64,000 nucleotides of DNA from an uncultured Candidatus Saccharibacteria bacterium. GTDB taxonomy: Bacteria > Patescibacteriota > WWE3 > CAZQFB01. Shown piece by piece: positions 2,091-33,368 of this stretch. Within the stretch, counting starts at the first letter, position 1. Each line of letters begins with the position of its first letter. The stretch spans positions 212,413 through 276,412 of the forward strand of contig CAZQFB010000001.1 of NCBI GenBank assembly GCA_964592525.1, read 5' to 3'. The notes below the pieces were generated by a model. It saw nothing but the letters and a program-made list of their open reading frames with translations, had not been told where the DNA came from and did no database searches. The position numbers were made by a program, and so were the translations under genes.

Positions 2091-3737
2091 TTAGTGGTTG
2101 TTTTGTGCCAACAGAAAAAGCCCGTATTTTTGATCAATTAGTTGCCAATCTCCCGTGGAGATTAGCTGCTGTAAATCGGCAGGTAGCGGAATGGTACCCA
2201 CAAAATTAGAGACTTCTTCAGTATCGTGTACTCCATTGACAGTATCTACTAATATATACTCTGCTTCTTTGTTTACGATAAAGGGATCAGCGGGTGAATA
2301 ATAAATCCATATCTTTTGTCTGGAGGAGAGAGCTCCTGTGAATTTATGATTAGTTGCAGTTGGTGCGTTTTTTGGAATTGAGGCGATCATTTGCCAAGCA
2401 ATTGTATCCCGGGGACTTAACTGGTAGCGAAAGCTGTCACTCTCGGTGAATAAGGCTTTGTATATTGGCGAGTACATATAAAAACCCCATAAGGTAGTTA
2501 TAAGAATTAGAAAAGGAATATAGCGAGCCTTTCTGAAGTATCTAGAAAGATTTGCATTTGCCTGGATAGCTCCAGTTATTAGGAAGGGAATAACGGCAGC
2601 AAAATAATATATCAATACGGGTAAGCGGAAATCCCGGGTTGATACATTGAGTAGAAAATTTCTTCCTATTGTCGGAAGTAGACCGATTAAGTATGTTGGG
2701 CTAAGAATGGGAATATACATAAATGGCTTAAGAAGTAAATTTTTCAAAAACTCTGTTTTTCTCACCTCAAAGAAGAAATCAATAAACGTATACCTGGTAT
2801 GTTCCCGCATATAGGCAATAATTTCATGAGCGTTACTTCCGAAATGACTGTAGTTATCCAAGGGACCATACCTGGGTATTTGCACCTGACTGTATTCAAG
2901 TAAATGTGCAGACCAGCGAGCTGAAATAATAAACCACAATAACCCAACAACTATTGGTACTAAACACCATTTGAATAAGTAGGTAAGCTGAATTTTAATT
3001 GTTTCTTTGTGGCTCGCAGTGAGGATTTTTTTCTTACTACTCTGCTTCCAAGTCAGCACAGTTTTCAAAATGAAGCTCCATTTATTGCCTCTCTTTAACA
3101 TCGGTAATAAGGTCTCAATTTTGTGACTTATTATCTGGAATATTCTGGCAATCAAGGTTAATAACCCAAAACTAGCAATCACTGGGGCGTTTGTTTCGTT
3201 ACACGAGAGAGCTAATACCATAGCTAACAGAAAAAGTTTGTATCTGCTCTGGATATAAAAGTAAATCATTAACAACAGGAAAAAGATTACATAAGTTTCA
3301 AATCTAAGATCAGAAAGCACAATCCAGTGTAATAAGGGGTTTAGCAGATATATTAGTGAAAACAGTACGGCTTGGTTTTTGTTTTTAAGAACTTTTTGCG
3401 CCATTAGAAATATCGGAATTGCTCCCAAGGAGAGAAAGAGAGTTTGTAAAAGTAGAAGCATAGTCACATCTGGCTTGAAGATATAAAAGGGCAGAATAAG
3501 AAACATAATTAGATCTACATGTTGACTAAAAAAGGGTAATCTTTCGTTGTTATATACTGTTTGGAAAAGAGGGTCTTTGCCATAACTTAGGTTATACATC
3601 GTCTGGTTTCTTTGACCAATGTCCATAGCCCACCAGGTTGAAAAAGACCTGTATTGATCGTTCGCCAGAGAGAAACCAATTAGTGTAAATATGGTTATCA
3701 CAGTGCCAAGTAATATCAAATAGTATCTTGATTTCAT
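2091..3737 (-). CDS. polytopic integral membrane protein, DUF2079-like (putative glycan-processing membrane protein)
   Basis: A 548 aa protein with more than 10 predicted TM segments, an N-terminal D-I-G-x-R-N-Q motif and a His-containing loop (SQHVDLIMFL). It sits at the edge of the glycosyltransferase island. Confidence 0.4.
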   Translation of the reverse strand: MKSRYYLILLGTVITIFTLIGFSLANDQYRSFSTWWAMDIGQRNQTMYNLSYGKDPLFQTVYNNERLPFFSQHVDLIMFLILPFYIFKPDVTMLLLLQTLFLSLGAIPIFLMAQKVLKNKNQAVLFSLIYLLNPLLHWIVLSDLRFETYVIFFLLLMIYFYIQSRYKLFLLAMVLALSCNETNAPVIASFGLLTLIARIFQIISHKIETLLPMLKRGNKWSFILKTVLTWKQSSKKKILTASHKETIKIQLTYLFKWCLVPIVVGLLWFIISARWSAHLLEYSQVQIPRYGPLDNYSHFGSNAHEIIAYMREHTRYTFIDFFFEVRKTEFLKNLLLKPFMYIPILSPTYLIGLLPTIGRNFLLNVSTRDFRLPVLIYYFAAVIPFLITGAIQANANLSRYFRKARYIPFLILITTLWGFYMYSPIYKALFTESDSFRYQLSPRDTIAWQMIASIPKNAPTATNHKFTGALSSRQKIWIYYSPADPFIVNKEAEYILVDTVNGVHDTEEVSNFVGTIPLPADLQQLISTGDWQLIDQKYGLFLLAQNNH

Positions 3738-3783: not shown

Positions 3784-4533
3784 ATGGTCAATAATAAAAC
3801 CATATCTGTAGTAATACCCTGTCACAATGAGGAGGAAAGTATTCTCCACACACTCTCCATGGTGCCAAAAGAGGTTGATGAGGTAATAGTAGTAGATAAT
3901 CTCTCAAGTGACAGGACTGCTTCTAATGCGCGTGAGGCTGGAGCTACTGTGGTTTTGGAAGAAAATAAGGGCTATGGTTATGCTATCAAGGCAGGTATCA
4001 GAAGCGCTTCCGGAGATGTGGTGATAGTCGCGGACGGTGATGGAACTTATCCTTTTGAGCTTGCGACTACTTTGGCTTCTCATCTTGTAACTAGTAACTT
4101 AGAGTTTATTTCCTGCTCAAGATTTCCTCTTACCACTAAAGAAAGTATGTCGCCGGTAAATGTGCTTGGAACAAAAATATTAAACCTCGTTGCCTTTATG
4201 TTGTATGGTGTTTGGTTTAGGGATATTCTCTCTGGAATGTGGGTTTTTAAAAGAGAGGCAGTAACGCAATTAGATTTGGTGAGTAATGATTGGAATCTTT
4301 CAGAAGAGATAAAGATAGAGGCGGCAAGGAAAACTAAATTTAAAGAGGTTCATATTAACCATAATGTTAGATTAGGTGAAACAAAATTGATGAAATGGTA
4401 CGTGGGTTTGGAAAATTTAGTTTTTCTTTTTTGGAAAAGGTTTTTCCCAACTCGCGCTTTACCAACCTGTTTTAGAATCACACAATATCAGAATAAGTTT
4501 GAACCTACACCAAATATAAAAAATGAAAAGTAA
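3784..4533 (+). CDS. GT2 family glycosyltransferase (polyprenol-phosphate sugar synthase-like)
   Basis: The N-terminal ISVVIPCHNEE...VIVVDNLSSDRT...GYGYAIKAGI...VVIVADGDGTYP is a classical GT-A/DPM-synthase DxD architecture. Confidence 0.75.
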   Translation: MVNNKTISVVIPCHNEEESILHTLSMVPKEVDEVIVVDNLSSDRTASNAREAGATVVLEENKGYGYAIKAGIRSASGDVVIVADGDGTYPFELATTLASHLVTSNLEFISCSRFPLTTKESMSPVNVLGTKILNLVAFMLYGVWFRDILSGMWVFKREAVTQLDLVSNDWNLSEEIKIEAARKTKFKEVHINHNVRLGETKLMKWYVGLENLVFLFWKRFFPTRALPTCFRITQYQNKFEPTPNIKNEK

Positions 4534-5971
4534 CCACACAAAAAATAGGCGAGTTGTTGTTATTGGTGCTGGTCCTACAGGACTCTCGGCGGCTTATTAT
4601 TTAGTCAATGGTGGTGGCGATGCAATTGTGCTTGAAAAGCAATCTGCTGTAGGTGGGATGGCTAAAACAATTAAGTACAAAGACATAAAGGTAGATTTTG
4701 GACCGCATCGTTTCACGCCCCACACTCAACAGGTTAAGGATCTGGTGTTTGACTTGATGGGTAGCAGTATTCTTATAAAACCACAGGTCTCAAAAATATA
4801 TCTTTGGGGAAACTACTTAAGTTACCCCTTAAAAATGACTTCTATACTTAGGTCTGTTAATCCCTTGATTCTTCTTAAGATCGGTTTTTCCTATCTACTC
4901 AAGCTTGTTAAGTCTGGTTTAAGGGGGGGTGCAATCAGAAATTATCGGGAGTATATGGAATATAATTTCGGACCATATTTAGCGCGAGAAGTATTTTGTC
5001 CAATAATTGAGAAGACTTGGAAGTTAGACCCTTCTGAAATTTCGCTTGATCTAGCGAAACAACGCGTAGCAATGGAGAGTTTGTTGAAGACATTTCTTAA
5101 TATTATTCTTAAAAGAAAACCAGCTGTATACGCTACGCAATTAATGCCAGCAGATCACTTCTATTACCCTCAAGGAGGTTTTGGGACTATTTCGGAGAAA
5201 CTAAAAGAAGAGATTCTAAAACAAGGAGGTCACCTTGAGTTGAAGGCAGAGTTAACCGGGATTATTTGTAAAAAGGGAAAGGCTACTGCTGTTACTTATA
5301 AACAAGAGGGTTTGACCAAAACAGTGCTCTGTGACTCGGTAATAGCTACTTGCCCCCTTACGGAAATAGTATCTAAGTTATCAGGTTGTGATATTCCAGC
5401 AGGGATAAAGCAGGCAAGTGAGCATCTTAAGTTTCGTCATCTGCGCATCCTTTTCTTAGTGCTTAATAGAAACAGGCTTAGTGAGGATATTTCTATATTT
5501 TATCCTGATTTGTCCTTGCCTTTTGGGCGATTGTTTGAGCAGAAGAATTACGATGAGCATATGGTGCCAGAGGGTAAAACTGTTCTGGGAGTGGAGTTGA
5601 CTTGTGCGGACGAAGACTATTACTGGTCTGTTTCGGATGAGGGATTAGGCAAGGAAATAATAAATTCGCTAGTAAAGGTGGGTCTTATTACTGCTGAAGA
5701 AGTGTTGGATTATTTCAGCCAGCGCAATTCTTTTTCGTATCCTGTTTATGATCTTGAGTATAAAGATAATTTAGAAAAATTAACCTTGTTTACCGATCAG
5801 ATAACTAATTTAATCATTGTAGGGCGAGCTGCCTCATTTTTATATAACAACACACACCACTCTCTGGAGATGGGTTATTTGGCTGCTAAGCAGGTGCTTT
5901 CAGGGGATGATACTATTAAAGAGTGGGCAAAAGACAGAGAACTTTTTCATTCGTATACGATAGTGGAGTAG
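4523..5971 (+). CDS. FAD/NAD(P)-binding oxidoreductase (amine-oxidase/CrtI/UGM-like fold)
   Basis: The N-terminal dinucleotide-binding motif is VVVIGAGPTGLSAAYYL...LEKQSAVGGMAKT (GxGxxG...E...GG). The protein is 482 aa. Its start overlaps the upstream GT2 stop by 11 nt, which suggests translational coupling. Confidence 0.65.
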   Translation: MKSNHTKNRRVVVIGAGPTGLSAAYYLVNGGGDAIVLEKQSAVGGMAKTIKYKDIKVDFGPHRFTPHTQQVKDLVFDLMGSSILIKPQVSKIYLWGNYLSYPLKMTSILRSVNPLILLKIGFSYLLKLVKSGLRGGAIRNYREYMEYNFGPYLAREVFCPIIEKTWKLDPSEISLDLAKQRVAMESLLKTFLNIILKRKPAVYATQLMPADHFYYPQGGFGTISEKLKEEILKQGGHLELKAELTGIICKKGKATAVTYKQEGLTKTVLCDSVIATCPLTEIVSKLSGCDIPAGIKQASEHLKFRHLRILFLVLNRNRLSEDISIFYPDLSLPFGRLFEQKNYDEHMVPEGKTVLGVELTCADEDYYWSVSDEGLGKEIINSLVKVGLITAEEVLDYFSQRNSFSYPVYDLEYKDNLEKLTLFTDQITNLIIVGRAASFLYNNTHHSLEMGYLAAKQVLSGDDTIKEWAKDRELFHSYTIVE

Positions 5972-8441: not shown

Positions 8442-9421
8442 ACCCTACTTTAAAGAAATACCTGCTCCCCGCCATTCTGTCATTCGTATTTCTCTTCTTT
8501 CTTTTTAAATTGATTGGTGATCCAAAAGCCTTTATTGAAAACATCTTTAATCTCAACCCTTATTATTTGGGGTTGGCTTTTATCTTTTATACGATAGTCG
8601 CTATCGCTCGTTCCTTAAGAATCCAAGCAGTATACCCGGAGGAAAAGTATCCTTTGGGGAAACTGGTGGCAGTATCTAACCTACACACCTTTATCAGTAA
8701 TGTTTTCCCTTCCCGTTTGGGGGAGTTTTCTTTTATTTACCTGATGCGCAAAGTATTTGGTCAACATGCCGGCCGTAACACCATTGCTCTAATCTTTGTG
8801 CGCATTATGGATACTTTTACCGTCGCCTCTTTTTTCATTGTGTCCGCCGGTATTGTGGGGTTTACTCATGCTGGCATAGATCACCTGTGGGTTTTCTTTA
8901 TGCTAGTGGTCCTGCTCGGGTTAGCCTCTTTCTACCTTGATATTTTGGTTAATATTGGGGTGTCATTAGTAAAAGCTATCATCTCCCTAGTTAAGCTTGA
9001 AGGTGTTAGCCCTGTTCGCAAGCTATTGGATTTTTTAGATGCTTTGCTAGGTTTTAAGATGCTTCGTTCAAAGGGAGTTTATGGGCGAACCATGTTTCTT
9101 TCCTTTGTGGTGTGGACCTTTTTAATGCTGGCGAATAAAGCGATGACCATGGCCATGGGTCTGGATCTTACCTTTCCGGTGCTCTTTTTTGCATCCACTG
9201 GAGCGGTGCTCACCAGTTTAATACCGGTGACGACCTTTGCGGCGGTGGGTACCTATGAGTTGGGGTGGATTGGCGCCTTTGCTCTGATTGGGATGGGTAG
9301 GGAAGAGGCTATTATTACCGGTTTAACTATTCACACGATCAACTTTGTCTTCTCGGCAATTTTGGGTGGATTGGGGTTTTTGGTGATAAATAAAAGTACC
9401 CGACAACAAGAAACCCCATAG
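8438..9421 (+). CDS. UPF0104 / lysyl-PG-synthase-TM-like flippase-like membrane protein
   Basis: A 327 aa polytopic protein. The N-terminal KKYLLPAILSFVFLFFLFK...LNPYYLGLAFIFY...ARSLRIQ is typical of the flippase-like domain family that is often paired with GT2 enzymes. Its start overlaps the upstream GT2 stop. Confidence 0.55.
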   Translation: MNPTLKKYLLPAILSFVFLFFLFKLIGDPKAFIENIFNLNPYYLGLAFIFYTIVAIARSLRIQAVYPEEKYPLGKLVAVSNLHTFISNVFPSRLGEFSFIYLMRKVFGQHAGRNTIALIFVRIMDTFTVASFFIVSAGIVGFTHAGIDHLWVFFMLVVLLGLASFYLDILVNIGVSLVKAIISLVKLEGVSPVRKLLDFLDALLGFKMLRSKGVYGRTMFLSFVVWTFLMLANKAMTMAMGLDLTFPVLFFASTGAVLTSLIPVTTFAAVGTYELGWIGAFALIGMGREEAIITGLTIHTINFVFSAILGGLGFLVINKSTRQQETP

Positions 9422-10372
9422 TTGATTAAGTGTTTCCTCTTTTATATAATTCCTTGGCACTCGGAGTTCGCCGAAGTGTCTATCGCCTCGCTCCAAGGGA
9501 GTGAAGGTGCAGGAGGGATCGTTGTGAGCGACCCAACACTAGCCCAATTGAAGCAGTTTTTTGATCTGCTCGATGGGGTTCTGGATGCCAAGAGAACACT
9601 CCAAGGCATCATTGAGAAGTGGGGAGTAGTAAGATTGGTAGGCAATACTCCTCACACGCAGAAAGAGCTTCTTCAGCTTCTGCAGGACTACCTTGAGGGT
9701 AGGATTGTGCTTGATCGCTTTGCTCTCTTTAGTGAGCTTCTGCTGAGCCCGGCTGATCAGCTGGAGCGTCTCCGAGCATATGACGAGAAATACTGGGGAG
9801 GTGCAATCTGCGAGGAGCTAAAGGGTTTTCAGTTACCCGATGTAGGTCTTCACCCGCAAAGGGTGAAGGATTTGCGGGTTCTTCATGTGGAATTTGGCTC
9901 TCCGGGAGAGACCCTGGAGAGGTGGTGGCAGGTGATCTCAGCTACCCAGCCCGGGTCTTGGCGATCGGGAGATCTCCAGAGTGATTCTGCTCATCTGGGT
10001 CTCCACAGCCAGGCACGCCACTACCCTCCAGGAATCCATGTGGTTCGCCTAGACCTGGCGGCCCATTGGGAGCCGGAAGCGGGGAGAACCCTGGTGGATG
10101 TATACGCTAGGGTTAGGGAAGCTGGGGAGAAGCTTGCCCATGGTGAGATTCTCTCGGCCTGTGGGCTCCATCCTGATCTGGTAAGGGAGATGGATGGAGA
10201 GAATCTGCCTTTCGTGGATCTGGCAGGGTATCAGGTATTAATGCCTGGTTTACCGACCTGTCGGGCTGTTCCGTGTCTTTACTGGGATAGCCTCAGAGGC
10301 AAGGTCGCCCTCGACGTCGACTCCATTGACTATTTCCTTCCCTCTTGGGCGGCTCCGGTGCTCAGGGAGTAA
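9422..10372 (+). CDS. hypothetical protein encoded in an atypically GC-rich segment (possible horizontally acquired gene)
   Basis: The ORF is 316 aa with a TTG-initiated track start, and the true start is uncertain. The DNA is visibly GC-rich (~55%) against ~40% flanks. The codon pattern is coherent (gag/ctg/ggg rich), and no family was recognised. Confidence 0.35.
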   Translation: MIKCFLFYIIPWHSEFAEVSIASLQGSEGAGGIVVSDPTLAQLKQFFDLLDGVLDAKRTLQGIIEKWGVVRLVGNTPHTQKELLQLLQDYLEGRIVLDRFALFSELLLSPADQLERLRAYDEKYWGGAICEELKGFQLPDVGLHPQRVKDLRVLHVEFGSPGETLERWWQVISATQPGSWRSGDLQSDSAHLGLHSQARHYPPGIHVVRLDLAAHWEPEAGRTLVDVYARVREAGEKLAHGEILSACGLHPDLVREMDGENLPFVDLAGYQVLMPGLPTCRAVPCLYWDSLRGKVALDVDSIDYFLPSWAAPVLRE

Positions 10373-10439
10373 GTACTCCTACTTAGGGTCTTAGGGCTTT
10401 TGGTGATAAGTCCTTGGACCTTTGTTTGAGAGAAAGAGA

Positions 10440-14044: not shown

Positions 14045-15265
14045 ATGTTAAGTTCATCTAAACATATTGTTATTTTTGTGCGTTCTTTGCCGCTACATGC
14101 AAGCTTTGGGGGTATGGAAACCCAAGCCCACCTATTAGCCGAAGGTTTGCTAGAAGAAGGTCACAAGGTTGATGTAATTACCAATCCTGCTTTCAAATCG
14201 GTACCAAGCACAAAGTATAAGATTCATTTCACAAGTAAGGGGGATCACACCAAATACACAAAGGAATATTTTTCACAAAGCGCCAATATTTTAAAAGAGA
14301 TTCATGAGCGGGATCCAGTAGATATGGTGATTAGTGAGAGTGCGGCTGGTTTTGGCTATAGCTTAAAACGTAAGGTAGAGTTGGGTATCCCCGTCATTCT
14401 TATTCAACACGGCTCTTTGTGGGGCGAAGTTCAAACCACTCAAGCCAAAGCAACTTCCTTCAAGGATTACCTAAGACTTATTCTGAAAATCTACCCCTAC
14501 GCTTTCAAGACCTACTTTATGCTTGATCTTAAACATATGAAAAAGGTGGATCAGATTATCGCGGTGAGCCAGAGTGTGAAAGAAGCTGTGGTTAAGGAGT
14601 ATCGGGTTGATGCCAGTAAGGTTAGCGTTGTTTATAACGGTATTGAGGTTAATAAATTTCAAGTTGCTAGTGAAGAGGAAAAGATGAACTTGCGTAATAA
14701 CTTAGGCATAGCGCCAAAAGACTTGGTGCTTTTATATGTGGGGAGAGTAATTGCAGAGAAAGGCTTGCAAGATGTAGTGCAAGTGCTCCCTCAACTGCCC
14801 ACAAGCGTCAAATTTATGGTGGTGGGGGCAGGGGATTTCCTCTCCACTCTTAAAGCCAAGATCTCAAAGCAGGGTCTTGAAGAAAGAGTAAGCTTCATGG
14901 GCCGGGTGGGTTATGAAGAGGTGGCTAAATATTACAAAGTAGCTGATGTTTTTGTGTTTCCTACCCATCGGGAGGAAGGTTTCCCCATGACTCTAATTGA
15001 AGCACAAGCTAGCGGGTTACCCGTGATAGTGGCGGATAAGGGTGGGGCTAAAGAGGCTATTGAGGAAGAAGTAACTGGTTGGAGTTACCCTGCGGGAGAT
15101 TTGAAGCAATTGACCCTGACTTTACAGCAAGCTGTTAATAACGCTGATCTTAAAACCATGTCGAGGGAGGCTGAGAGCAGGGCAGTCAAGCTTTTTAGCC
15201 AACGTAAAATGGTAATGGATACCTTAGCGGTGATGGCTAAAGTGCTAGAGAAACCCACTACCTAG
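14045..15265 (+). CDS. GT4 family glycosyltransferase
   Basis: FVFPTHREEGFPMTLIEAQASGLPVIVADKGGAKEAIEEEVTGW is the classical GT4 EX7E region. Confidence 0.75.
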   Translation: MLSSSKHIVIFVRSLPLHASFGGMETQAHLLAEGLLEEGHKVDVITNPAFKSVPSTKYKIHFTSKGDHTKYTKEYFSQSANILKEIHERDPVDMVISESAAGFGYSLKRKVELGIPVILIQHGSLWGEVQTTQAKATSFKDYLRLILKIYPYAFKTYFMLDLKHMKKVDQIIAVSQSVKEAVVKEYRVDASKVSVVYNGIEVNKFQVASEEEKMNLRNNLGIAPKDLVLLYVGRVIAEKGLQDVVQVLPQLPTSVKFMVVGAGDFLSTLKAKISKQGLEERVSFMGRVGYEEVAKYYKVADVFVFPTHREEGFPMTLIEAQASGLPVIVADKGGAKEAIEEEVTGWSYPAGDLKQLTLTLQQAVNNADLKTMSREAESRAVKLFSQRKMVMDTLAVMAKVLEKPTT

Positions 15266-15349
15266 GTTAGTGGGAGAGGCTCCAATTATCTAAAACCACA
15301 ACCCTATAGTTAGCTCTAATACCTATAAACAGTGGTGTAAAAAAGATAC

Positions 15350-15378
15350 TTGACAACCTGTAGTAAGCGGTGTACAAT
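15350..15378 (+). promoter_or_regulatory. sigma70-like promoter TTGACA-17-TACAAT
   Basis: TTGACA at 15350-15355, a 17 nt spacer, then TACAAT at 15373-15378. It lies in a 329 nt intergenic gap upstream of a GC-rich structured region. Confidence 0.5.
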
Positions 15379-15384
15379 TCGCAC

Positions 15385-15570
15385 CGTCCTTAGGGGATGT
15401 TCCCCTTATGAAGGAGGACTACGGGGGAAAGTGCCTGGCGAAAATTCCCCGACACAACTTCAAAGCCAGGAAAGGGGGAGCACAGGGTGACGGACCCTGT
15501 AAGCTTCTGATCTTTTGTGGTACCCGGGTGGGGGTAAACGTCCCCCACCCGGGGTTTGTCCCTCTTTTGC
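15385..15570 (+). ncRNA. GC-rich structured RNA element (candidate small RNA or riboswitch-like leader) ending in an intrinsic terminator
   Basis: The region downstream of the promoter is much more GC-rich than its surroundings and contains multiple perfect hairpins (AGGGGA/TCCCCT, CAGGGT-GACGG-ACCCTG, CCUGGC...GCCAGG). It ends with the 12 bp stem cccgggtggggg-taaacg-cccccacccggg (15523-15553) plus a U-tract. The overlapping 82 aa ORF (15408-15656) is probably spurious. Confidence 0.35.
15523..15570 (+). terminator. rho-independent terminator / attenuator hairpin
   Basis: A 12 bp perfect GC stem (15523-15534 / 15542-15553) with loop TAAACG, followed by gtttgtccctcttttgctt, about 25 nt upstream of the ATG at 15595. 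Confidence 0.55.
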
Positions 15571-15594
15571 TTATTTCCCTGATATACTCATTAC

Positions 15595-17079
15595 ATGCAA
15601 AAAAAGCGCACTTCTTTTGTTGTCTTTTTCATTTTTCTGTTTTCATTAAGTTTTAGGTTATGGGGTATAACCACCATGGGTGAGTATTGGGATGAGGCGC
15701 AAATTGCTGAAACTGGCAGTGAATACCTACGCAATGTTTCTCAATTAGATTTTTCTTCTCAAGCTTGGTCTGTTAATAAAGAACACCCTCCCGTGGCCAA
15801 GTATCTCTACGGTGCTTCCAAACTGGTACCAAAGTATATAACCGCGGTGGCTCGAATTGATAGCGAGTATGCGGTGGGTAAACAGTTAACCTTTGGGCGT
15901 TTGGTGAGTGCCGTGCTTGGTTCGTTGACGGTAGTCTTTTTGTTTCTGGTGGGTAAGACATTATACAACCCAAGAGTGGGTTTGGTGGGGGCTCTCTTTT
16001 TAAGTCTGCTCCCTCATGCTATCGGTCATAATCGGGTGGTGGGTTTGGAAACTCCCCTTTCTTTCTTTATTCTCCTTTCCCTATATTTATTTTTGGTGAA
16101 GAGAACACTATTAGCGAGTGCGGCTTTTGGCTTAGCTTTGGCGACTCGTTTTAACGCCATTTTAATGCTCCCCTTCTTTTTACTTGTACCCCTAGTCCAA
16201 GGAGATCCTGTCAAAAAGGCGGCAAAACAATTATTTTTCCTGGTTCTTGTTTCATTTATCTTGCTCCTTGTTACCTGGCCCTGGCTTTGGAGTAACCCTC
16301 TGGGCAATCTTATTGAGAGTCTGTCCATGTCCACCACCCACACAGACGCGGAGTACTTTTTAGGAAGACTTGGTAATTTGCCCTGGTTTTATTACTTGCT
16401 ATATACCTTAGCGACTCTTCCCTCTATTCTGCTCATTTTTTTGACTGCTTCTGCTGTGAAGTTGGTAAAAGACAGGGGAAAAGAGGATGTAATTCTTTTT
16501 AGTTACCTGCTTCTTCCTTTCGTGGCTTCGTTTTTGCCTCTCAAGCAAGATGGTTTGCGCTACATTTTTCAGGTTTTGCCCGCGCTGGCGCTCGTTTGCG
16601 CAGTGGGGTTTGATTACCTTGTTAAAGGTATTATTCGTCTAAGTCATTTGCCGAGCAAAATTTATTCCCTAAGTTTGGGTTTGGTGATGGTGTTATTACT
16701 AACGAGCTTTTTGCGGTTTAACCCTTATCAAATAGATTTTTACAATTATATGGTTGGGGGAACGAAGTATGTTTATGAGTATAGACTGTTTGAGGTTGGG
16801 TGGTGGGGGGAGGGTATCTATGAGGCTATGCAGTGGGTTAATGATAATGCCAAAGAGGGGGCTAGTATTAATATTGCCTACTCCCCCCAACATGTTGCAC
16901 CGGAACCTCGGAAGGATCTGCAAATTTTTGCTGGTGATTTTGGGCAAGATTATATTCTCTTGAACACCTATTCGCAGTGGTACAAAGAGGTTGGCTTGAG
17001 TCCTGATGATTATGAGTTGGTATATTCGGTAGAGGTGGCAGGGGCTCATTTAGCCGAGGTTTACAGAAGAAGTTATTAA
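15595..17079 (+). CDS. GT-C membrane glycosyltransferase, PMT/ArnT (GT39/GT83-like) family
   Basis: A 494 aa polytopic protein. The first extracytoplasmic loop carries WDE (the DE motif) and EHPPVAKYL (the HPPLxK-type PMT motif). Confidence 0.65.
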   Translation: MQKKRTSFVVFFIFLFSLSFRLWGITTMGEYWDEAQIAETGSEYLRNVSQLDFSSQAWSVNKEHPPVAKYLYGASKLVPKYITAVARIDSEYAVGKQLTFGRLVSAVLGSLTVVFLFLVGKTLYNPRVGLVGALFLSLLPHAIGHNRVVGLETPLSFFILLSLYLFLVKRTLLASAAFGLALATRFNAILMLPFFLLVPLVQGDPVKKAAKQLFFLVLVSFILLLVTWPWLWSNPLGNLIESLSMSTTHTDAEYFLGRLGNLPWFYYLLYTLATLPSILLIFLTASAVKLVKDRGKEDVILFSYLLLPFVASFLPLKQDGLRYIFQVLPALALVCAVGFDYLVKGIIRLSHLPSKIYSLSLGLVMVLLLTSFLRFNPYQIDFYNYMVGGTKYVYEYRLFEVGWWGEGIYEAMQWVNDNAKEGASINIAYSPQHVAPEPRKDLQIFAGDFGQDYILLNTYSQWYKEVGLSPDDYELVYSVEVAGAHLAEVYRRSY

Positions 17080-17121
17080 TAAGTAGTGTAAAGCCTGCCT
17101 GCGGCAGGCAGGTGAAAAGTT

Positions 17122-18792
17122 ATGAACTCTTTGATTAGATCTAAATCCAACCCGCGAAATATTCTTTTGCTGGTTGCTTTAATTGCTACGTTGTTTTTCT
17201 ACTACCTAAACCAGACCCAAGCAATTTGGCAAAACCCTTTCCCCAAAGGTGATGAGGTGGCTTATCTGGCGACGGCGGTAGCTATTCGTGAAGAAGGTGG
17301 GCTGGTGTCTTTAATCCCGCGGATGATAACGGGTGATTACAAGGAAGCCAACAGACACCCGTTCTATGTGGGTCTGCTCTCAATTTTTGCCCATCCGTCT
17401 TTGGATTTTTTTGCCAATGCTAAAGCTTTTAACCTGGTGCTAGGGGGAATCTATCTGCTTTTACTGTTTTGCCTGATGCGCAAACTCCTAGGTTGTTCCT
17501 TAGCTTTCTTGATGGTACTACTGTATGCGGGGAACTATTTTTTTCTCAACCAAGTAGCCAAAGTATCCACCGAACCTCTGTTATTTATTTTCGTTTTATT
17601 GAGTTGGTACTTAATTACTGAATATGGTCAGAAAACAGATAAAAAAATCGTACCTTCGGCAATGGTAGCCTCCTTGAGCTACTTGGCTAAAGTGACAGGG
17701 ATTTTTGTAATCCTTTCTTATCTGGCTACCAACTTAATTGCGGTGCTAACAAAAAAAACAGCCTTGTTCTCCAAAATTAAGCTCACTGCTCCCACACGTA
17801 AGGAAGTTGTTCTGTTTATTGCCACAGTACTCGTGGTAGCCTCCCCCCTTTTGTGGCGAAATACGCTGGTGTACAACAACCCGTTCCATAATTACAACAG
17901 TAAATTACTGTTTATCGCTAGGGGTGAGGAGCGGAGAACGGTGGAGATTTACAAAGGAGAATCACAGGGGTTAGTGGGGTTTATTAAGGAGCAATCTATT
18001 GATGGGACTGTGGGACGGCTCTTGAGAGGTATGGTCAATGAGAGTGTGGTTTTTACCCAAATGGTGTTTTTTGATTATGGGCGGATTAGAGGTTCTTTAA
18101 TTCTGTTTGGTTTGTTCTTGATGTCTATGTTAAGGGACAGGAATAGGTGGCGCGCGTTGTATTCAGTCTTCCTTTTTTCTGCCTTTTTTATCTTCTTCTC
18201 TTGGTATTACCCTATCAGCGGTCACTTTCGCTATGTTCTCCCCGTACTCTTTATTGTTTACTTCTATCTTTTTCTTCTTCTAAAAGATTTTGTAAAGTAC
18301 CTTTCTATGAAGTGGCGTTGGTTAGCAAAGTTTACCTTAGTAACACCGTTACTTCTTATGCTGCTAGGGTTCTACCTAATATATGAAGAACTTGATGAAC
18401 ACGAATATATTACCCCGGCGCATGCCCATAAAGTGACGACAGCTTATTTAGATCTTGCTTCGTGGATTGAAGACAATATTACCCCCGAAACTTTATACTT
18501 AAATGGGCCTGGTCATGAGTTTCAAGTTGAATGGCTCACGGGTACCTCTGAACAATCAATTGAAATGCCAATTGTTACTAGTCTGTCAGAACTTAATCAG
18601 TTTATTTCTGATTATGGCATAAAATATGTCATCCTCTCTCAACCAACTATTACTGGTCGCGAGCTTATTTTGAAGGATTATTTTATACTTAAAGGAGATG
18701 GGTTGCAGGAAGTATCAAAACCCCAAGGATGGGCATTAATTGCCCATGAGCACCGAAGTGACCCTCGCTATTTAATCTATGAAATTCAATAA
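17122..18792 (+). CDS. GT-C membrane glycosyltransferase, PMT/ArnT-like
   Basis: PFPKGDEVAYLA...ANRHPFYVGL gives DE and HP loop motifs. The N-terminal half is polytopic and there is a C-terminal soluble domain. Confidence 0.6.
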   Translation: MNSLIRSKSNPRNILLLVALIATLFFYYLNQTQAIWQNPFPKGDEVAYLATAVAIREEGGLVSLIPRMITGDYKEANRHPFYVGLLSIFAHPSLDFFANAKAFNLVLGGIYLLLLFCLMRKLLGCSLAFLMVLLYAGNYFFLNQVAKVSTEPLLFIFVLLSWYLITEYGQKTDKKIVPSAMVASLSYLAKVTGIFVILSYLATNLIAVLTKKTALFSKIKLTAPTRKEVVLFIATVLVVASPLLWRNTLVYNNPFHNYNSKLLFIARGEERRTVEIYKGESQGLVGFIKEQSIDGTVGRLLRGMVNESVVFTQMVFFDYGRIRGSLILFGLFLMSMLRDRNRWRALYSVFLFSAFFIFFSWYYPISGHFRYVLPVLFIVYFYLFLLLKDFVKYLSMKWRWLAKFTLVTPLLLMLLGFYLIYEELDEHEYITPAHAHKVTTAYLDLASWIEDNITPETLYLNGPGHEFQVEWLTGTSEQSIEMPIVTSLSELNQFISDYGIKYVILSQPTITGRELILKDYFILKGDGLQEVSKPQGWALIAHEHRSDPRYLIYEIQ

Positions 18793-20350
18793 TAAACCGG
18801 TCTTGCTAGTATTACTGTTAGTTGTCCTGGTACGTTTACTCCTGCTCAATGTTAATTTGGCTGAAATCGGCGATTCTTATAATCTCCTTACGGCTGGAGA
18901 GGCTCTAAAATCCTTGCAGTACCCTCTGGAGGAGAAGAGGTTACCTCTGCTGCCACTGCTTCTTTCTCTGAATCGTGTTATTGAACCGCTTTTGTTTGGT
19001 CGTTTATTGATGTTAGTGCTTAGCACTTTAAGCATAATTATCACTTTGAAGCTTTATTATCACTTATCTGCTGGTAAAAATTACGGGTGGTTTCTAGTGC
19101 TTCTATTGGCTACCCAACCACTTTGGTCTTACTGGTCTTTACGGATTATGACTGACGTGTTGTTTGCATTGCTGTTTATGCTTTTTGTCTATCTGACCAT
19201 GAGTAAAACACCTAGTCCGCGCCTAGCCATTTATCTTGGAGTAGTTACTGGGCTAGCAGCGCAAACTAGGTTTGAAGGGTTTTTGTTACTAGCTGCTTAT
19301 CTACTATTTCTGTTTATAAAAAATAAGTATCGGTATTTGGTTTACTTTTTAACGCCAGCCTTGCTGATTGTTTTGCCTTTTTTTATTCGTAACTGGCTGC
19401 ACTTTGGTAGTCTGTTTTATTCGTCTTATGCCCAAGAAGCTTCACAGTATCTTCCCGATTTAAGGTTAATAGCGATTTTTATTACTTATTTAGTTTTTTT
19501 AATGGGTCCTTTAACCACTTGGTTTGTCCGCTTGGGGGTCTCTCAAGTGGCGCGTTTGAAAGTGACCCAAATTTTGCCAACAGTGATTTATCTGTTTTTA
19601 TTTATGCCCTTAATTGGTGTTTGGACAGCAGCGGTACCGAGACTTTTCTACTCTCTAGTACCTCTTTTTGCCTTGTTAGTGGTACTCGGTTTTGAGCAAG
19701 CTTCTGGTAGAGGAAAAGAGGAGCTAAAACCAAGCGCCGTCTTATTTGGATTGTTCTTGGTGTTAGCTTGGTTTTTAAGAGTGGATTTTATCACCGGCAG
19801 TTTTTCTGCCATGGTCTTGGTAAGCTTTTTAAGTTTGTTGGGTTTAATTTCCCTTGGGCTGACTGCTAATTACCGACCTTGGTTAATGACGGTGATGCTT
19901 CTTTCTAATTTAATAGTTGCCACCTCGGTTATTTCCCAAGCTAAAGACAGAGCGAGTACGACATGGCAAGCAGTGCAATACGCTTCTAAATTGCCTGGTT
20001 TGATTGGTTATGCTGACGAAACTGGTGTGAGTTCATGGTATTTGCGCAAGACTGGTCGCTACTGGCGTGATGACCCTGGGTTTACAGAAGCGCTTAATTG
20101 GCTGCGGGATAATCAAATTAAATATGTGCTGCTTACTAACGAACACTACGAGGAAGGGGCGCAATTTTTGGTTGTTTATGACAGGCATGATGCCCATATG
20201 TTTAAATTGCTAACCAGATTTGAGCGGGTTGGTGATCAAGATCTCTTCAATCAATTGTTTGCAAAATTGGGTTGGAAAGACGCCAAACAATTAATACCAA
20301 AATATGCTGAAGTCTATGAAGTTATTTCGTACCGATCACCAAGCGATTAA
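18779..20350 (+). CDS. polytopic membrane protein, GT-C-like (putative glycosyltransferase)
   Basis: A 523 aa protein with about 12 TM segments and a GT-C-like architecture. The motifs are weaker. The start overlaps the upstream gene. Confidence 0.45.
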   Translation: MKFNNKPVLLVLLLVVLVRLLLLNVNLAEIGDSYNLLTAGEALKSLQYPLEEKRLPLLPLLLSLNRVIEPLLFGRLLMLVLSTLSIIITLKLYYHLSAGKNYGWFLVLLLATQPLWSYWSLRIMTDVLFALLFMLFVYLTMSKTPSPRLAIYLGVVTGLAAQTRFEGFLLLAAYLLFLFIKNKYRYLVYFLTPALLIVLPFFIRNWLHFGSLFYSSYAQEASQYLPDLRLIAIFITYLVFLMGPLTTWFVRLGVSQVARLKVTQILPTVIYLFLFMPLIGVWTAAVPRLFYSLVPLFALLVVLGFEQASGRGKEELKPSAVLFGLFLVLAWFLRVDFITGSFSAMVLVSFLSLLGLISLGLTANYRPWLMTVMLLSNLIVATSVISQAKDRASTTWQAVQYASKLPGLIGYADETGVSSWYLRKTGRYWRDDPGFTEALNWLRDNQIKYVLLTNEHYEEGAQFLVVYDRHDAHMFKLLTRFERVGDQDLFNQLFAKLGWKDAKQLIPKYAEVYEVISYRSPSD

Positions 20351-21731
20351 ACTTTTTTGGTTGGTCTTTTTTGTTTATACCCTTAGTTGGTTGTGTTTTT
20401 ATTTTAGCGGTATCAATCGGACGTTGCTTCCCAGTGAAGATGCTTTACCAGCCACTTATCTGCCAGTATCTTTGGTTAGCGAAGGTAATTTGGATTTGAA
20501 CGAATACTATGATTATTTAGTTAGTCACTATCCCAACCCAGACGATAAAGACGCCTTGCCCTTTTATGTGCGGTATATTAATGACAGGTATGTTTCCGGG
20601 TTTCCCGTGGTTAATGTACTAATGGTGGCCCCGATATATGCCTTTTTTATATGGGGTGCTTCACTCTTTTCAGGGCTCATGCCTTCTCTAGCCGACCTAA
20701 CCTCAAGTGTTGTTTTTATTCTCGCTTTAGGAAAAATAGCTTCGGCGATTATAGCGGCTTTTTCGGTGTTGGTTGTTTATTTGATAGGTAAGGAAATGTC
20801 AACTAGCAAGGTTGCGCTTGTGGTGAGTTTGATTTATGGATTAGCCACTTCTACTTTTAGTGTTTCTAGTCAGGGGATGTGGCAACATGGTTCAGTTGAG
20901 TTGTTTTTAAGTTTAGCTCTTCTTTTTCTGGTTAGAGGTGGCTCAAAAGCATACCTTTCTGCTCTCTTTTTATCTCTGGCTACTTTAACCAGACCGACTA
21001 TGGGTTTGGTGGCAATAATTTTTGCGGTGTATTTTATCTGGCAACACCAAGAGCAACTGCACAGATTTATCTTGCTCGCTCTGCTCCCTCTTGTGCCTTG
21101 GTTTATCTATAACCGCATTTATTTCGGTGCTTTTTTGTCTCATGCCTATAATACCGGGGTAGGCACTCAAGGTAACTGGACCGGTAGCTTTCCAGAAGGG
21201 TTCTTAGGTTTGTTGCTCTCGCCAAGCAAGGGCTTATTTATCTATTCACCCGTTCTGCTATTTGTATGGTGGGGGATAGGGTTGTTATTTAAACAAAGAA
21301 TTCAACCCAAACGCTTACTTAACTTCTATTATTTTGCCCTTTTTGCAGTGGTAGCTTATATCTTACTGATGGGAAGGTGGTATCACTGGTTTGGTGGTTG
21401 GTCTTTTAGTTACCGCATGATTGTGGATATTTTACCTTTAATAGTGCTGTTTTTAGTTCCGGTGATGGCGCACCAGCTCCTCTTTTGGTGGCGGTTTCTC
21501 TTTAGCCTATTATTTATTTATTCTTTTGGTATTCAGCTTCTTGGAGTCGCTTTTTTTGATGGCGAGTGGCATGCGCGCTATGATGATGGGCCTTATGATA
21601 CGAGGTGGTTATGGTCAATTGAGAATTCAGAGCTGTTGTACTACTCCAGAAAAATTAAATGCAAGCTAGGGACTAGTAGTGTGTCGGAATATCTTGAGTG
21701 TCAGGGTTTTAGAAAAGAGAGTGCAAACTAA
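20304..21731 (+). CDS. polytopic membrane protein, GT-C-like (putative glycosyltransferase)
   Basis: A 475 aa protein with an N-terminal loop (LPSEDALPATYLP...NEYYDYL) followed by multiple TM segments. The likely true start is an internal Met near 20316. Confidence 0.4.
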   Translation: MLKSMKLFRTDHQAIKLFWLVFFVYTLSWLCFYFSGINRTLLPSEDALPATYLPVSLVSEGNLDLNEYYDYLVSHYPNPDDKDALPFYVRYINDRYVSGFPVVNVLMVAPIYAFFIWGASLFSGLMPSLADLTSSVVFILALGKIASAIIAAFSVLVVYLIGKEMSTSKVALVVSLIYGLATSTFSVSSQGMWQHGSVELFLSLALLFLVRGGSKAYLSALFLSLATLTRPTMGLVAIIFAVYFIWQHQEQLHRFILLALLPLVPWFIYNRIYFGAFLSHAYNTGVGTQGNWTGSFPEGFLGLLLSPSKGLFIYSPVLLFVWWGIGLLFKQRIQPKRLLNFYYFALFAVVAYILLMGRWYHWFGGWSFSYRMIVDILPLIVLFLVPVMAHQLLFWWRFLFSLLFIYSFGIQLLGVAFFDGEWHARYDDGPYDTRWLWSIENSELLYYSRKIKCKLGTSSVSEYLECQGFRKESAN

Positions 21732-24028: not shown

Positions 24029-24041
24029 TCTGGAGACCCCG

Positions 24042-24100
24042 CTCGGGGCACTCCTGCTGGGAATGCCCCGAGGCGAGGTTTAAGGAGTTCCCTCCTTTTG
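24042..24100. terminator. bidirectional terminator hairpins between convergent genes
   Basis: ctcggggca (24042-24050) pairs with tgccccgag (24064-24072) as a 9 bp stem. A second small hairpin ggag-ttcc-ctcc follows, then ttttg. The element lies between the MurJ (+) stop and the stop of the 109 aa (-) ORF. Confidence 0.45.
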
Positions 24101-26241: not shown

Positions 26242-27903
26242 GTGGCAAAGTACCTAAAGAGAAGTAATTCTATATTGATCGTAATTCTGATCGTTTCTTT
26301 TTTGTTGCGGGTATGGGGAATTAATTTTGGCTTTCCTTTCTTTTTGCATCCGGATGAAACTAAGATTGTGGAAAAAGCTATTACCATGGCCTTCGGTTTT
26401 AAAGAGGCTATCTTTGCCGGCGACCTTAAATTTTTTGATCCTAATTTTTATTTTTACCCCAGCTTCTTAACCTATTTGCTTATGTTTAATATTTTAGGCC
26501 TTAAGGTTATATTTCTAATTCTTAAATTCTTGACTCTGGGGAAAGTTACTTTTGCTCTGGTTTCCAAACCTCTTTTTTACTTCCTAGCTCGTTTGATTTC
26601 GGTTCTTTTTGGTACAGCTACTATTTACTTAACCTATCTATTGGGGAAAAGAATCTCTGGTAACACGGTGGGACTTATCGCGGCCTTGATTTTGGGTACC
26701 AACTTTTTCCACGCCCTTAACTCCCATTACTATACTGGTGATGTGGGGGCTACCTTTTTCACAGTCCTGTCGTTTCTATTTATTTTTATGTATTTGGATC
26801 GGGTAAAAATTATGAGAGCAGGATGGCGGAATGAATACTGGGTTTATTTAGCAGCTCTATCTATTGGTTTTGGTGCCGCTACAAAGTACTACCCAGTACT
26901 AATGCTTGCTATTTTGGTCATTAGTGTTTTTCTGGTAGAACCAGATTTTGCTGCACGCGTAAGAAAGGTAATTACTTCGGTACTAATATCTTTGGCAACC
27001 TTTATGCTGATAGTGCCTTTTAGCGTGTTTAATTTCTCGGCTTTTATTGATGAGCTGAAGGAGTCTAGTGCGCGGTCGGCTACGGGAGTGTTTGGTTTCA
27101 CTAGCGATAATTTTTTCCATTACCTGACCTCCACCGAGCCAACGTTTATTGAACCAATAGCACAAAATTCACTATTGCATGGTTTGGGCTTGGTTTTCAT
27201 GTTGCTTTTCCTTGCTTCTTTAGGGCTATTGCCGGCTAAAAAGAATAAGAAGGTTCTGCTACTGATAATTTATGTGTTGGGACACTATCTTTTCTTTGCG
27301 CACAACCTCACCAAAATTTTAAGGTGGCTCTTGCCGCTTGCTCCTCTTGGGTCTGTTTTGGTTGCTATTCTCATTGTCGAGCTGGGTAATAAGCTGGTTA
27401 GAATAAAGCTGTGGTTAGTGGGTGGTGTTTTACTCGCCATTATCATTCCTAACCTCTACAGAACTATTCTTGTTGATGATGCTTTTACCAAAGAAGATAC
27501 GAGAGTTCAGCTTTACCATTGGGTGGAGAATCATATTCCCGAAAACAGTCGAATCGTGTTTGAGTATTTCAACATCGCCCAGTTTACCAGAAGAGATCTT
27601 TATTATTTTGAATTTGATCATCCCCGCTATAACATTAATGGAGAGATAGCAGCTAGCCGACCACCTGATTACCTGTGGCTTAAAAATGTTTACCAGCCAG
27701 AGTATATTGTTATCAATGGGAGTTTGAGAGATCGCTATAAACAAAAGAGTATGCAAAAATTATTTCCGGAAACCTGCTCAGCCTGGCTTGAAATCTATGA
27801 TAATATTCACAAAGATTATCAGGTAGCCGTTAGGTTTAGGCCATCGTTTCCCGACAGAATCATGTCGGGGCCAGAGATGATTGTTTATGTGCCTAGAAAG
27901 TAA
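26242..27903 (+). CDS. GT-C membrane glycosyltransferase, PMT/ArnT-like (paralog set A)
   Basis: GFPFFLHPDETKIV. It shares the N-terminal RxWGI...GFPF(L)YHPDEP motif with the genes at 33355 and 34946. Confidence 0.6.
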   Translation: MAKYLKRSNSILIVILIVSFLLRVWGINFGFPFFLHPDETKIVEKAITMAFGFKEAIFAGDLKFFDPNFYFYPSFLTYLLMFNILGLKVIFLILKFLTLGKVTFALVSKPLFYFLARLISVLFGTATIYLTYLLGKRISGNTVGLIAALILGTNFFHALNSHYYTGDVGATFFTVLSFLFIFMYLDRVKIMRAGWRNEYWVYLAALSIGFGAATKYYPVLMLAILVISVFLVEPDFAARVRKVITSVLISLATFMLIVPFSVFNFSAFIDELKESSARSATGVFGFTSDNFFHYLTSTEPTFIEPIAQNSLLHGLGLVFMLLFLASLGLLPAKKNKKVLLLIIYVLGHYLFFAHNLTKILRWLLPLAPLGSVLVAILIVELGNKLVRIKLWLVGGVLLAIIIPNLYRTILVDDAFTKEDTRVQLYHWVENHIPENSRIVFEYFNIAQFTRRDLYYFEFDHPRYNINGEIAASRPPDYLWLKNVYQPEYIVINGSLRDRYKQKSMQKLFPETCSAWLEIYDNIHKDYQVAVRFRPSFPDRIMSGPEMIVYVPRK

Positions 27904-27926
27904 AAAGTGGAAAGCGAAAAATAAAT

Positions 27927-28913
27927 ATGATTGAGGATAGCCAACCAAGGGATAGTAGTAAGATTGATCTTTCTATTGTCATACCGCTTTACAACGAGGA
28001 GGAAAGTATTCCTTATCTCTATGAGGAAATTAAGGCGGTGATAGATAGTCAAAATTATAATGTTGAAGTGATAATTGTGGATGACGGGTCTTCGGATAAT
28101 TCTTTTGAAAAGCTAAGGAAAATTCATGACAAAGACAACAGGTTCAAAGTGATTTCTTTTAGAAGGAACTTTGGTCAAACTGCCGCCTTGCAAGCGGGTT
28201 TTGACAAAGCTAAAGGTGAGGTGATTGTTACCCTTGATGCTGATTTGGAGAATGATCCTAAAAACATACCAGATTTATTGGCTAAGTTAGATGAAGGTTA
28301 TGATATTGTTTCTGGCTTAAGAGCCGAACGATGGTCAGGTGGGTTGATGAGTTTAATCAAGAGGAAACTGCCTTCGGCTGCAGCAAACTATTTAATTTCT
28401 CGGACCTCACAAGTTCGTCTTCATGATACGGGTTGTACGCTGAAAGCTTATCGACGTGAGGTATTAAGTCAGATCAGGTTATATGGTGATTCTCACCGAT
28501 TTATCCCAGCAATGGCTAGTCAATATGGGGCTAGGGTTAGTGAGGTGGAAGTCAACTTCCGCCCCAGACGTTTTGGTACTTCCAAGTATGGGTTTTCTCG
28601 CACCATCAAAGTATTCTTAGACGTTATTCTGTTAAGGTTTATGTTAGAGTTTTCCACCCGACCGATGCAGTTTTTTGGGTTTTGGGGTTTACTCGCTGGT
28701 GGTTTGGGGTTTGTTTTTGGTTTGTATTTAACCCTTCTTAAGATCTTAGGTCATCAAAATATTGGTAGTCGACCACTTCTGCTCTTATCTGTACTCCTTC
28801 TTTTTCTGGGCGTTCAGTTGGTGATGATGGGACTTCTGGGTGAACTGCTCTCCCGCACCTACTTTGAATCACAAGGTAAAAAAACATACAGTATCAAAGA
28901 AGCCTTGCTTTAA
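27927..28913 (+). CDS. GT2 polyprenol-phosphate glycosyltransferase (ArnC/GtrB-like) with C-terminal double TM
   Basis: LSIVIPLYNEEESI...VIIVDDGSSDNS...RNFGQTAALQAGF...VTLDADLENDP, plus two C-terminal TM helices. This is a very typical ArnC/GtrB architecture. Confidence 0.8.
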   Translation: MIEDSQPRDSSKIDLSIVIPLYNEEESIPYLYEEIKAVIDSQNYNVEVIIVDDGSSDNSFEKLRKIHDKDNRFKVISFRRNFGQTAALQAGFDKAKGEVIVTLDADLENDPKNIPDLLAKLDEGYDIVSGLRAERWSGGLMSLIKRKLPSAAANYLISRTSQVRLHDTGCTLKAYRREVLSQIRLYGDSHRFIPAMASQYGARVSEVEVNFRPRRFGTSKYGFSRTIKVFLDVILLRFMLEFSTRPMQFFGFWGLLAGGLGFVFGLYLTLLKILGHQNIGSRPLLLLSVLLLFLGVQLVMMGLLGELLSRTYFESQGKKTYSIKEALL

Positions 28914-28918
28914 TTTGT

Positions 28919-30493: not shown

Positions 30494-30540
30494 GACCTTC
30501 GCTGTTTCTTGTTTGATGCCTTAAGAGAGAGCTATTTTGC

Positions 30541-32175: not shown

Positions 32176-33368
32176 TGAAAATAGCCATTTTTTCCACGAC
32201 CTTTTTTCCTCAAACCGGTGGTGCGGAAAGGTTTATGCACGGTTTGGCGACAAGGTTGGTTAAGCAAGGTCATCAAGTGGTGGTTATTGCCCCGATTGCG
32301 AAAGAATTAAACACCCACTCTTTTAGTTATAAGGTTTTTCGTTTGAGATTGCTGGCTCTTTTTATCCCCAGCAGTGTTTTTTATAACCTGACGTTACTGC
32401 TTAATTTATTTGTCTGTTACTGGCGGCATCGTTTTGAGGTTTTACAGGTAGTGGGTTTATATCCAGCCGGTGAGGCAGCGCGCTGGTTGGTTCGCTTCTT
32501 GCCAAAGGTGACTTTGGTGGCTAGGGCAACTGGTTCTGATATCTTGATTTTTCCAACCATTAATTACGGCTTGCGACTTGATCCCAAGATGGATGCTCGG
32601 ATTAAAAATATTATTCATGCTGCAGATGCGCTGGTTGCCAACAGTAATTCTGTTAAAGAAGAGTACCTCAAAGTTACTCCCGAGTCAGATAAAATTGTGG
32701 TTATACCCAATGCTCTGGATCTGGATAAATTTGTTACCACTCAAGAAAGTAACAGAGTGGTACGGAGGAAATGGTGTGATAATGATAACGCTCGCATCGT
32801 TCTTTCTGTGGGTCGTAATGAAGAAAGAAAAAACTTTGCGCTTTTAATCCAAAGTATGGAAGAGATAATGGTTAAGGAAGAGTATGAAGATGTTTATTGT
32901 GTCATCGTGGGAGCGGAAACGAAAAAACTAAAATCTTTGGTGGAGGCTTCGGTGATTGAAAATAGGTTTATTTTTGCCGGTCCGTTGCCGGTAGAAGGCA
33001 CTATGGAATATGAGAATTATCCTCCCCCCGAACTGATCGAGTTGTATTTGGCAAGCTCTCTCTTTGCCTTACCTTCTACCATTGAAGGTCAACCCAATGT
33101 TCTTTTGGAGGCTATGGCTGCAGGTTTGCCCATGGTGGCTGGAAATGTGCCCGGTAGTAAAGATGTTATTGAACATGGCAAGACAGGTTTTCTAGTTGAT
33201 CTGGAGCATCCCGCCGAGTTTACCGCGGCTTTGGAAAGATTATTATTACAGCCCGAGCTTCATCAGCGAATGAGTTTAGAGGCAAAGAAAAAAGCACAGG
33301 ATTATAATTGGGATATAGTCGTTGATCAGTATTTAAGACTTTATCTAAGTTGTAATGAGCATAAGTAG
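32157..33368 (+). CDS. GT4 family glycosyltransferase
   Basis: VLLEAMAAGLPMVAGNVPGSKDVIEHGKTGFLV. Confidence 0.75.
   Translation: MLKCEAMKIAIFSTTFFPQTGGAERFMHGLATRLVKQGHQVVVIAPIAKELNTHSFSYKVFRLRLLALFIPSSVFYNLTLLLNLFVCYWRHRFEVLQVVGLYPAGEAARWLVRFLPKVTLVARATGSDILIFPTINYGLRLDPKMDARIKNIIHAADALVANSNSVKEEYLKVTPESDKIVVIPNALDLDKFVTTQESNRVVRRKWCDNDNARIVLSVGRNEERKNFALLIQSMEEIMVKEEYEDVYCVIVGAETKKLKSLVEASVIENRFIFAGPLPVEGTMEYENYPPPELIELYLASSLFALPSTIEGQPNVLLEAMAAGLPMVAGNVPGSKDVIEHGKTGFLVDLEHPAEFTAALERLLLQPELHQRMSLEAKKKAQDYNWDIVVDQYLRLYLSCNEHK

Follow-up and report, generated by a model that had tools for sequence, protein, structure and literature searches.

The 329-nt gap (15266-15594) between a GT4 glycosyltransferase gene (14045-15265) and a PMT-like GT-C gene (15595-17079) in the 64-kb window, the whole stretch of DNA analysed here, contains what we regard, with roughly even confidence, as a candidate for a stand-alone, lineage-specific small RNA gene. 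The predicted transcript, both ends of which we infer, is approximately 175-185 nt long and was placed at 15384-15568 on the forward strand. An independent small RNA was one of two possibilities raised in an earlier, sequence-only reading of this DNA; it fits everything found and is the best fit, but the searches made gave no homologue besides one identical copy.

The promoter predicted to drive the RNA is of the sigma-70 type, with TTGACA (15350-15355) and TACAAT (15373-15378) on the forward strand separated by a 17-nt spacer, and agrees with the consensus in 11 of 12 positions, which bears out the near-consensus promoter described earlier for this 329-nt gap. Three sites with at least 11/12 matching positions were found on both strands of the 64-kb window, at 15350 (+), 50568 (+) and 11390 (−), and since chance alone would give about 1.1 sites as good as the 15350 promoter per 64 kb, both strands counted, the match taken alone is within chance expectation and not significant. 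Unlike the match alone, its placement relative to the structured segment is significant, a position in the gap, 6-14 nt before that segment and on the matching strand, corresponding to approximately 0.003 by simple proportion. Directly upstream of the promoter, at −46 to −38 on the same strand (15339-15347), the A-tract AAAAAAGAT resembles the proximal subsite of an UP element, for which we take the E. coli consensus to be AAAAAARNR. The only perfect 12/12 promoter of the window, TTGACA-17-TATAAT, is found elsewhere on the reverse strand (11390-11314), where a GC hairpin of 7 bp comes immediately after it, then UUAUUUUUU, AAGGAG and the start codon ATG of a gene for a C39-like peptidase; this leader, about 45 nt long, looks like a terminator and may act as a small attenuator or as a hairpin that stabilises the 5′ end.

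The segment 15384-15570 folds with a minimum free energy of −90.5 kcal/mol (z = −4.25), none of 200 shuffles being as stable, and the RNA without its terminal hairpin still has a z of −3.29. In sliding folds of both strands the RNA region gave the most stable 150-nt fold of the entire 64 kb, and the forward strand was favoured with −68 kcal/mol versus −56 kcal/mol for the reverse strand. G-U pairs, which are impossible on the opposite strand, make up 9 of the 61 predicted pairs of the RNA. The GC content of the RNA body is 57%, compared to 37% and 29% in the two flanks of the gap and 41.5% in the window. The GC-rich segment with several hairpins, previously described as an RNA of about 190 nt, was in this way confirmed in the sequence, with a predicted RNA length of about 175-185 nt.

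In the predicted fold, read on the forward strand, the small 5′ hairpin H1 (AGGGGA-UGU-UCCCCU, 15392-15406) is followed by a Shine-Dalgarno-like GAAGGAGGAC (15410-15419), by hairpin H2 (15422-15451, −11.2 kcal/mol), by the 13-nt C/A-rich single-stranded linker ACACAACUUCAAA (15452-15464) and by the long irregular hairpin H3 (15465-15521, −29.1 kcal/mol), which alone has a z of −5.77 with 0 of 200 shuffles as stable. The linker has unpaired probabilities of 0.7-0.9 and is the longest predicted unpaired stretch of the RNA, and from this model it is a candidate interaction site. The Shine-Dalgarno-like GAAGGAGGAC is paired with 15558-15568 (GUCCCUCUUUU) in the full-length fold, and pairs instead with 15386-15391 in the 3′-truncated fold; no start codon is found close enough to it to be usable. 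A leader peptide or small protein was considered, and both an MFPL mini-ORF and a 19-aa GTG ORF were rejected, neither having a usable ribosome-binding geometry. The region is non-coding, since a search of 1.84 billion representative proteins gave no match to the overlapping 82-aa ORF, which also lacks a Pfam match, and since no gene was called over the RNA in the identical copy, locus L001.

The RNA would end in the hairpin CCCGGGTGGGGG/CCCCCACCCGGG (15523-15553, forward strand), which has 12 perfect base pairs, a 7-nt loop and a folding energy of −26.7 kcal/mol, and which forms with pair probabilities of 0.98-1.0 in the fold of the full transcript. It is followed on the same strand by the imperfect U-tract GUUUGUCCCUCUUUUGC (15554-15570), in which three U residues begin one base past the stem, and the T-rich tail ends approximately 25 nt upstream of the ATG at 15595, as had been noted before. 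The same hairpin had been called a perfect terminator; this holds for the 12-bp GC stem, but the tail GTTTGTCCCTCTTTTGC is imperfect and the terminator scan made no call at the 15523-15553 hairpin and its tail. Canonical U-tails after genes are rare within this window. The strongest gene-end hairpins in it are those at 24040-24078, part of a very strong two-way hairpin (24037-24080, −24 and −34 kcal/mol) that separates convergent genes ending at 24028 (+) and 24123 (−); that neither strand of this hairpin has a U-tract suggests that the terminators of this organism are mostly hairpin-only. Given the strong stem followed by UUU, and the rarity of U-tails after genes in the window, the 15523-15553 hairpin is plausible as a predicted terminator for this organism. 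Read-through from the RNA into the 15595 gene could nevertheless be substantial, because the U-tract is imperfect.

In an alternative that we consider unlikely, the whole segment is a non-sensing 5′ UTR of 210 nt, the 15350 promoter serving the PMT-like operon as a second promoter further upstream, and the hairpin an element that pauses or partly terminates transcription and may stabilise the upstream fragment. The RNA is indeed co-oriented with the gene and ends 25 nt before its ATG, no terminator was called at the imperfect U-tract, canonical terminators are rare in the window, and the segment between hairpin and ATG is AT-rich and unstructured. That same segment, however, contains a promoter motif belonging to the gene itself. 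Downstream of the terminal hairpin of the RNA, the extended −10 TGaTATACT (15580-15588) is separated by the 6 nt cattac from the ATG at 15595 (15580-15597 in all, forward strand), and there is no Shine-Dalgarno sequence before this ATG, which fits leaderless translation and not a long leader. The usual distance from a −10 box to the transcription start is 7 nt, so that transcription would start at the A of the ATG, and the motif predicts a leaderless mRNA for the 15595 gene, made from a promoter downstream of the hairpin. The motif TGcTATACT-N6-ATG is also found at the PMT-like orthologues of loci L084 (1667) and L085 (2329), which have upstream gaps of 67-69 nt. Relatives need no such leader. 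At locus L003 (5001) the orthologous PMT-like gene is preceded by TACACT-N6-ATG.

The same arrangement recurs in the window. Many first-in-operon genes have no Shine-Dalgarno sequence and instead a −10-like hexamer just before the start, as seen in the 30 nt before each predicted start. TANNNT exactly 6 nt before the start was found for 7 of 50 window genes (12875, 15595, 21756, 24535, 26242, 36595 and 56786) versus 1.8% of all window ATGs (P = 3e-5), and the GlyRS gene at 56786 has TGcTATACT-cagact-ATG. A −10 box, often TGnTATACT, 6 nt before so many first-in-operon starts implies that leaderless mRNAs would be widespread in this Patescibacteria-like genome. Operon-internal genes in the window do use AGGAG-type sites. 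For the PMT-like gene, the Logan gene call P0001 starts at 15676, 27 codons later (467 aa versus 494 aa). Homologues conserve the N-terminal sequence read from 15595, and their alignment together with the predicted leaderless promoter favours 15595 over 15676 as the start. Misplacement of leaderless starts by gene callers may be systematic here.

The second possibility raised in the sequence-only reading, a riboswitch or attenuator leader that controls the GT-C operon, is contradicted because there is no competing fold, because the gene appears to have its own promoter and because no alignable RNA is found at five non-identical relatives. An aptamer in H1-H3 would here sense a ligand or protein and set termination, and we consider this highly improbable. 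The order of promoter, structured RNA, hairpin and gene does match that of terminating riboswitches, and an alternative pairing is present between CCUGGC and GCCAGG (15434-15439 and 15465-15470). The pairing had been proposed as one of two mutually exclusive ones and is a true 6-bp complement, but its pair probability is about 1e-4, it costs 5.8 kcal/mol and it leaves the terminator hairpin untouched. The other proposed pairing, of GGGGGAGCAC against the terminator arm UCCCCCACCC, comes down to just 6 contiguous pairs, GGGGGA (15474-15479) with UCCCCC (15541-15546), and forcing these raised the energy to −67.8 kcal/mol, a cost of 22.7 kcal/mol. The best fold without pairs between the two terminator arms has −74.1 versus −90.5 kcal/mol and is thus 16.4 kcal/mol worse, while the terminator itself has a probability of about 1; no helix joins the terminator arms to upstream sequence in that fold. 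Mutually exclusive terminator and antiterminator folds of comparable stability were not found for this RNA, nor did any Rfam riboswitch score even at E ≤ 10. This RNA differs from terminating riboswitches in having no competing antiterminator and no match to any Rfam riboswitch, and in not being conserved upstream of the orthologous genes. A riboswitch also sits in the 5′ UTR of the gene that it regulates, whereas here a separate promoter motif, with a putative start, lies between the hairpin and the ATG of the downstream gene.

Much of the window is occupied by one very large glycosylation region (15595-21731, 26242-38187 and 44766-47555). Eight ORFs either have PMT/PMT_2-type GT-C Pfam matches or, in the case of 20304-21731, which has no Pfam match, lie in the same tandem array; two ORFs at 33355-36598 resemble PMT-type GT-C proteins by eye, and one of these proteins carries a fused O-antigen-ligase domain. 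Also present in the region are GT2 and GT4 genes, a MurJ-like flippase and a DUF4012 protein.

Among candidates scored from 5.8 billion protein clusters, 14 homologues of the PMT-like protein were found at E ≤ 1e-10, the closest non-identical one being 48% identical, and this protein gave access to the syntenic and related loci; a scan of genome contigs gave relatives at ≤35% identity only. At locus L001 the PMT-like protein is 100% identical and the identical RNA sequence lies upstream. The syntenic locus L002 (48%) has a gene for a 101-aa small membrane protein upstream (2712-3017) and no structured RNA, and L003 (46%) has a gene for a 122-aa small membrane protein (4334-4702) followed by a different RNA. 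No RNA was found at L084 and L085 (both 42%), which have the 67-69-nt upstream gaps, or at L086 (39%), where the upstream gap is 18 nt. An RNA alignable to that of the window was present at the equivalent position in none of these 5 non-identical relatives. The small membrane proteins of L002 and L003 are homologous to each other (E = 1.4e-6) and are encoded between the GT4 and PMT-like genes; the window has no such gene, its RNA occupying that position. A derivation of the RNA region from the small membrane-protein gene of L002 and L003 was rejected, as there is no similarity.

The syntenic cluster of L002, which lacks the RNA, also speaks against another alternative, a processive antitermination element that would modify RNA polymerase to read through the glycosylation cluster. 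EAR RNA acts by processive antitermination in the eps operon of Bacillus subtilis and has a comparable placement in eps operons, and the window RNA does lie within a long run of glycosylation genes that share one direction, with GT4 genes before it and about six genes, reaching to 24028, after it. Such a function is nonetheless scarcely probable given that the RNA has no Rfam match of any kind, the EAR/epsC model included, and that a promoter of its own precedes it while that of the gene follows it.

The RNA at L003 (4699-4855, on a contig of ENA ERZ25072999) is a GC-rich folded RNA of about 120 nt with −57.9 kcal/mol and a z of −2.8, preceded by a TTGACA-17-TAAAAT promoter (11/12, the best of that locus) and followed by a canonical terminator. 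It has in common with the window RNA the position upstream of a PMT-like gene, an 11/12 promoter, a GC-rich fold, a terminator hairpin and the −10-N6-ATG arrangement, and differs in length (about 120 versus about 180 nt) and in having a canonical and not an imperfect U-tract. Homology between the two found no significant support, with a local alignment score of 31 versus 25.9 ± 4.6 for shuffles; the covariance model of the window RNA did not match the L003 RNA, and the L003 RNA gave noise only against Rfam. Of 34 loci examined, L003 alone has a structured, GC-rich element ahead of the gene, so a structured leader is not a property of the PMT-like gene family.

Searches for homologues of the RNA itself returned nothing beyond the RNA and its identical L001 copy. 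With Rfam 15 (4227 models, riboswitches, 6S, SRP, glmS and EAR/epsC included) no match was found at gathering thresholds in the whole window, and E-value searches with 501 nt and 197 nt gave noise only (E 0.4-10), mostly on the terminal hairpin, in agreement with the earlier reading, which could match the sequence by eye to neither SRP, 6S nor another known RNA. ARAGORN found no tRNA or tmRNA in the window. When the region was compared by blastn with the window and 86 loci, the region itself and the identical L001 were the only matches, as they were for a single-sequence covariance model, R1, of H1-H3 against the window and 87 loci; phage and plasmid collections yielded no meaningful blastn match, and two pattern scans of a metagenome collection and two of a viral one gave no matches. 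The window proteins themselves occur in one NCBI contig of 344 kb and one Logan sample, and SRA run SRR11845625 contains DNA of the organism. All five complete window proteins looked up, GlyRS among them, fall in single-member clusters at 90% identity, and the closest GlyRS shares 73% identity, with hundreds more at 66-70%. Of those with a source name, the majority are labelled Patescibacteria, Parcubacteria, Berkelbacteria or Nealsonbacteria, and one candidate division WS2. As far as the sequences indicate, the host is a deep-branching, poorly sampled Patescibacteria lineage. No report of small RNAs in Patescibacteria was found in the literature searched.

The absence of the element from all relatives, the identical L001 copy aside, is also what would be expected of a functionless GC-rich patch, for instance a foreign remnant or simply the terminator that ends the GT4 operon upstream, with a promoter-like site preceding it by chance. 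About 1.1 such promoter matches are expected per window, another GC-rich, foreign-looking insert is found at 9390-10409, and L002 and L003 have a small membrane-protein gene at this position. This explanation is in our judgement improbable, with promoter, A-tract, correct strand, the best fold of 64 kb and a terminal hairpin all found within about 230 nt, and with H3 alone reaching a z of −5.77; moreover the region has no similarity to the small-protein gene of the relatives and no flanking repeats that would hint at an insertion. A mobile-element signature around the gap was looked for and rejected in the absence of convincing terminal or direct repeats.

The GC-rich insert elsewhere in the window is a 1,020-bp segment (9371-10409) with 55-62% GC versus 41.5% for the window, flanked by a 19-nt direct repeat whose copies (9371-9389 and 10391-10409) are 89% identical. 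It holds an orphan 316-aa ORF (9422-10372) with no Pfam or NCBIfam match, starts at TTGATT-17-TATAAT and folds much more stably on the forward strand, and from its sequence it looks like an inserted foreign cassette.

As a stand-alone small RNA gene, the region would be expressed by the sigma-70-type promoter with its A-tract starting transcription near 15384. The nascent RNA would fold into H1, H2 and H3, with the 13-nt C/A-rich linker joining the hairpins, and most transcripts would be released near 15556-15568, at the GC hairpin of 12 bp and the UUU-G-U that follows it. This would yield a compact RNA, about 175-185 nt long and with hairpins close to either end, and the PMT-like gene would be transcribed separately, from its own extended −10, into a leaderless mRNA. 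Firing of the promoter and termination at the hairpin are what we infer from these elements, as is an action of the RNA in trans, whether its linker or loops form base pairs with a target or the RNA binds a protein. Duplex energies of the RNA against the 50 gene starts of the 64-kb window were at background, and so were complements of the linker ACACAACUUCAAA in the same 64 kb.

Among known systems, bacterial trans-encoded small RNAs have their own sigma-70 promoter and a Rho-independent terminator, as is predicted for the window RNA. They are likewise 100-200 nt long, with several hairpins and an intergenic, non-coding location, and the single-stranded linker and the terminal GC hairpin with a U-containing tail are further points of likeness. 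The window RNA differs from them in having no Rfam family, an imperfect U-tail and no non-identical homologue, and in its Patescibacteria-like host. The 6S and SRP (4.5S) RNAs are of a similar size range and, like the window RNA, have a strong promoter, and neither gave a match in the Rfam search of the RNA even at E ≤ 10. Whereas 6S is a rod with a central bubble and paired 5′ and 3′ ends, and SRP (4.5S) a single hairpin with a GNRA loop, the window RNA is multi-branched in both its minimum free energy and centroid folds and has a self-contained 3′ hairpin.

There is finally a small chance that the RNA is the first example of a regulatory RNA that is specific to Patescibacteria and linked to glycosylation of the cell surface, one that might sense a glycosylation intermediate, for instance a nucleotide sugar or a polyprenyl-phosphate-linked sugar, or that might act on RNA polymerase or on the leaderless mRNAs of the GT-C array. 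The L003 RNA would then be a diverged or analogous counterpart. As an orphan RNA of a single genome with no assignable target, the small RNA candidate is of modest immediate value; should its transcription follow the prediction, it would represent a small RNA gene with clear boundaries in a member of the Patescibacteria (CPR). The −10 box found 6 nt before gene starts bears on gene-start calling and on the reading of intergenic RNAs in such genomes, and this leaderless-start observation may be of wider use than the small RNA itself.
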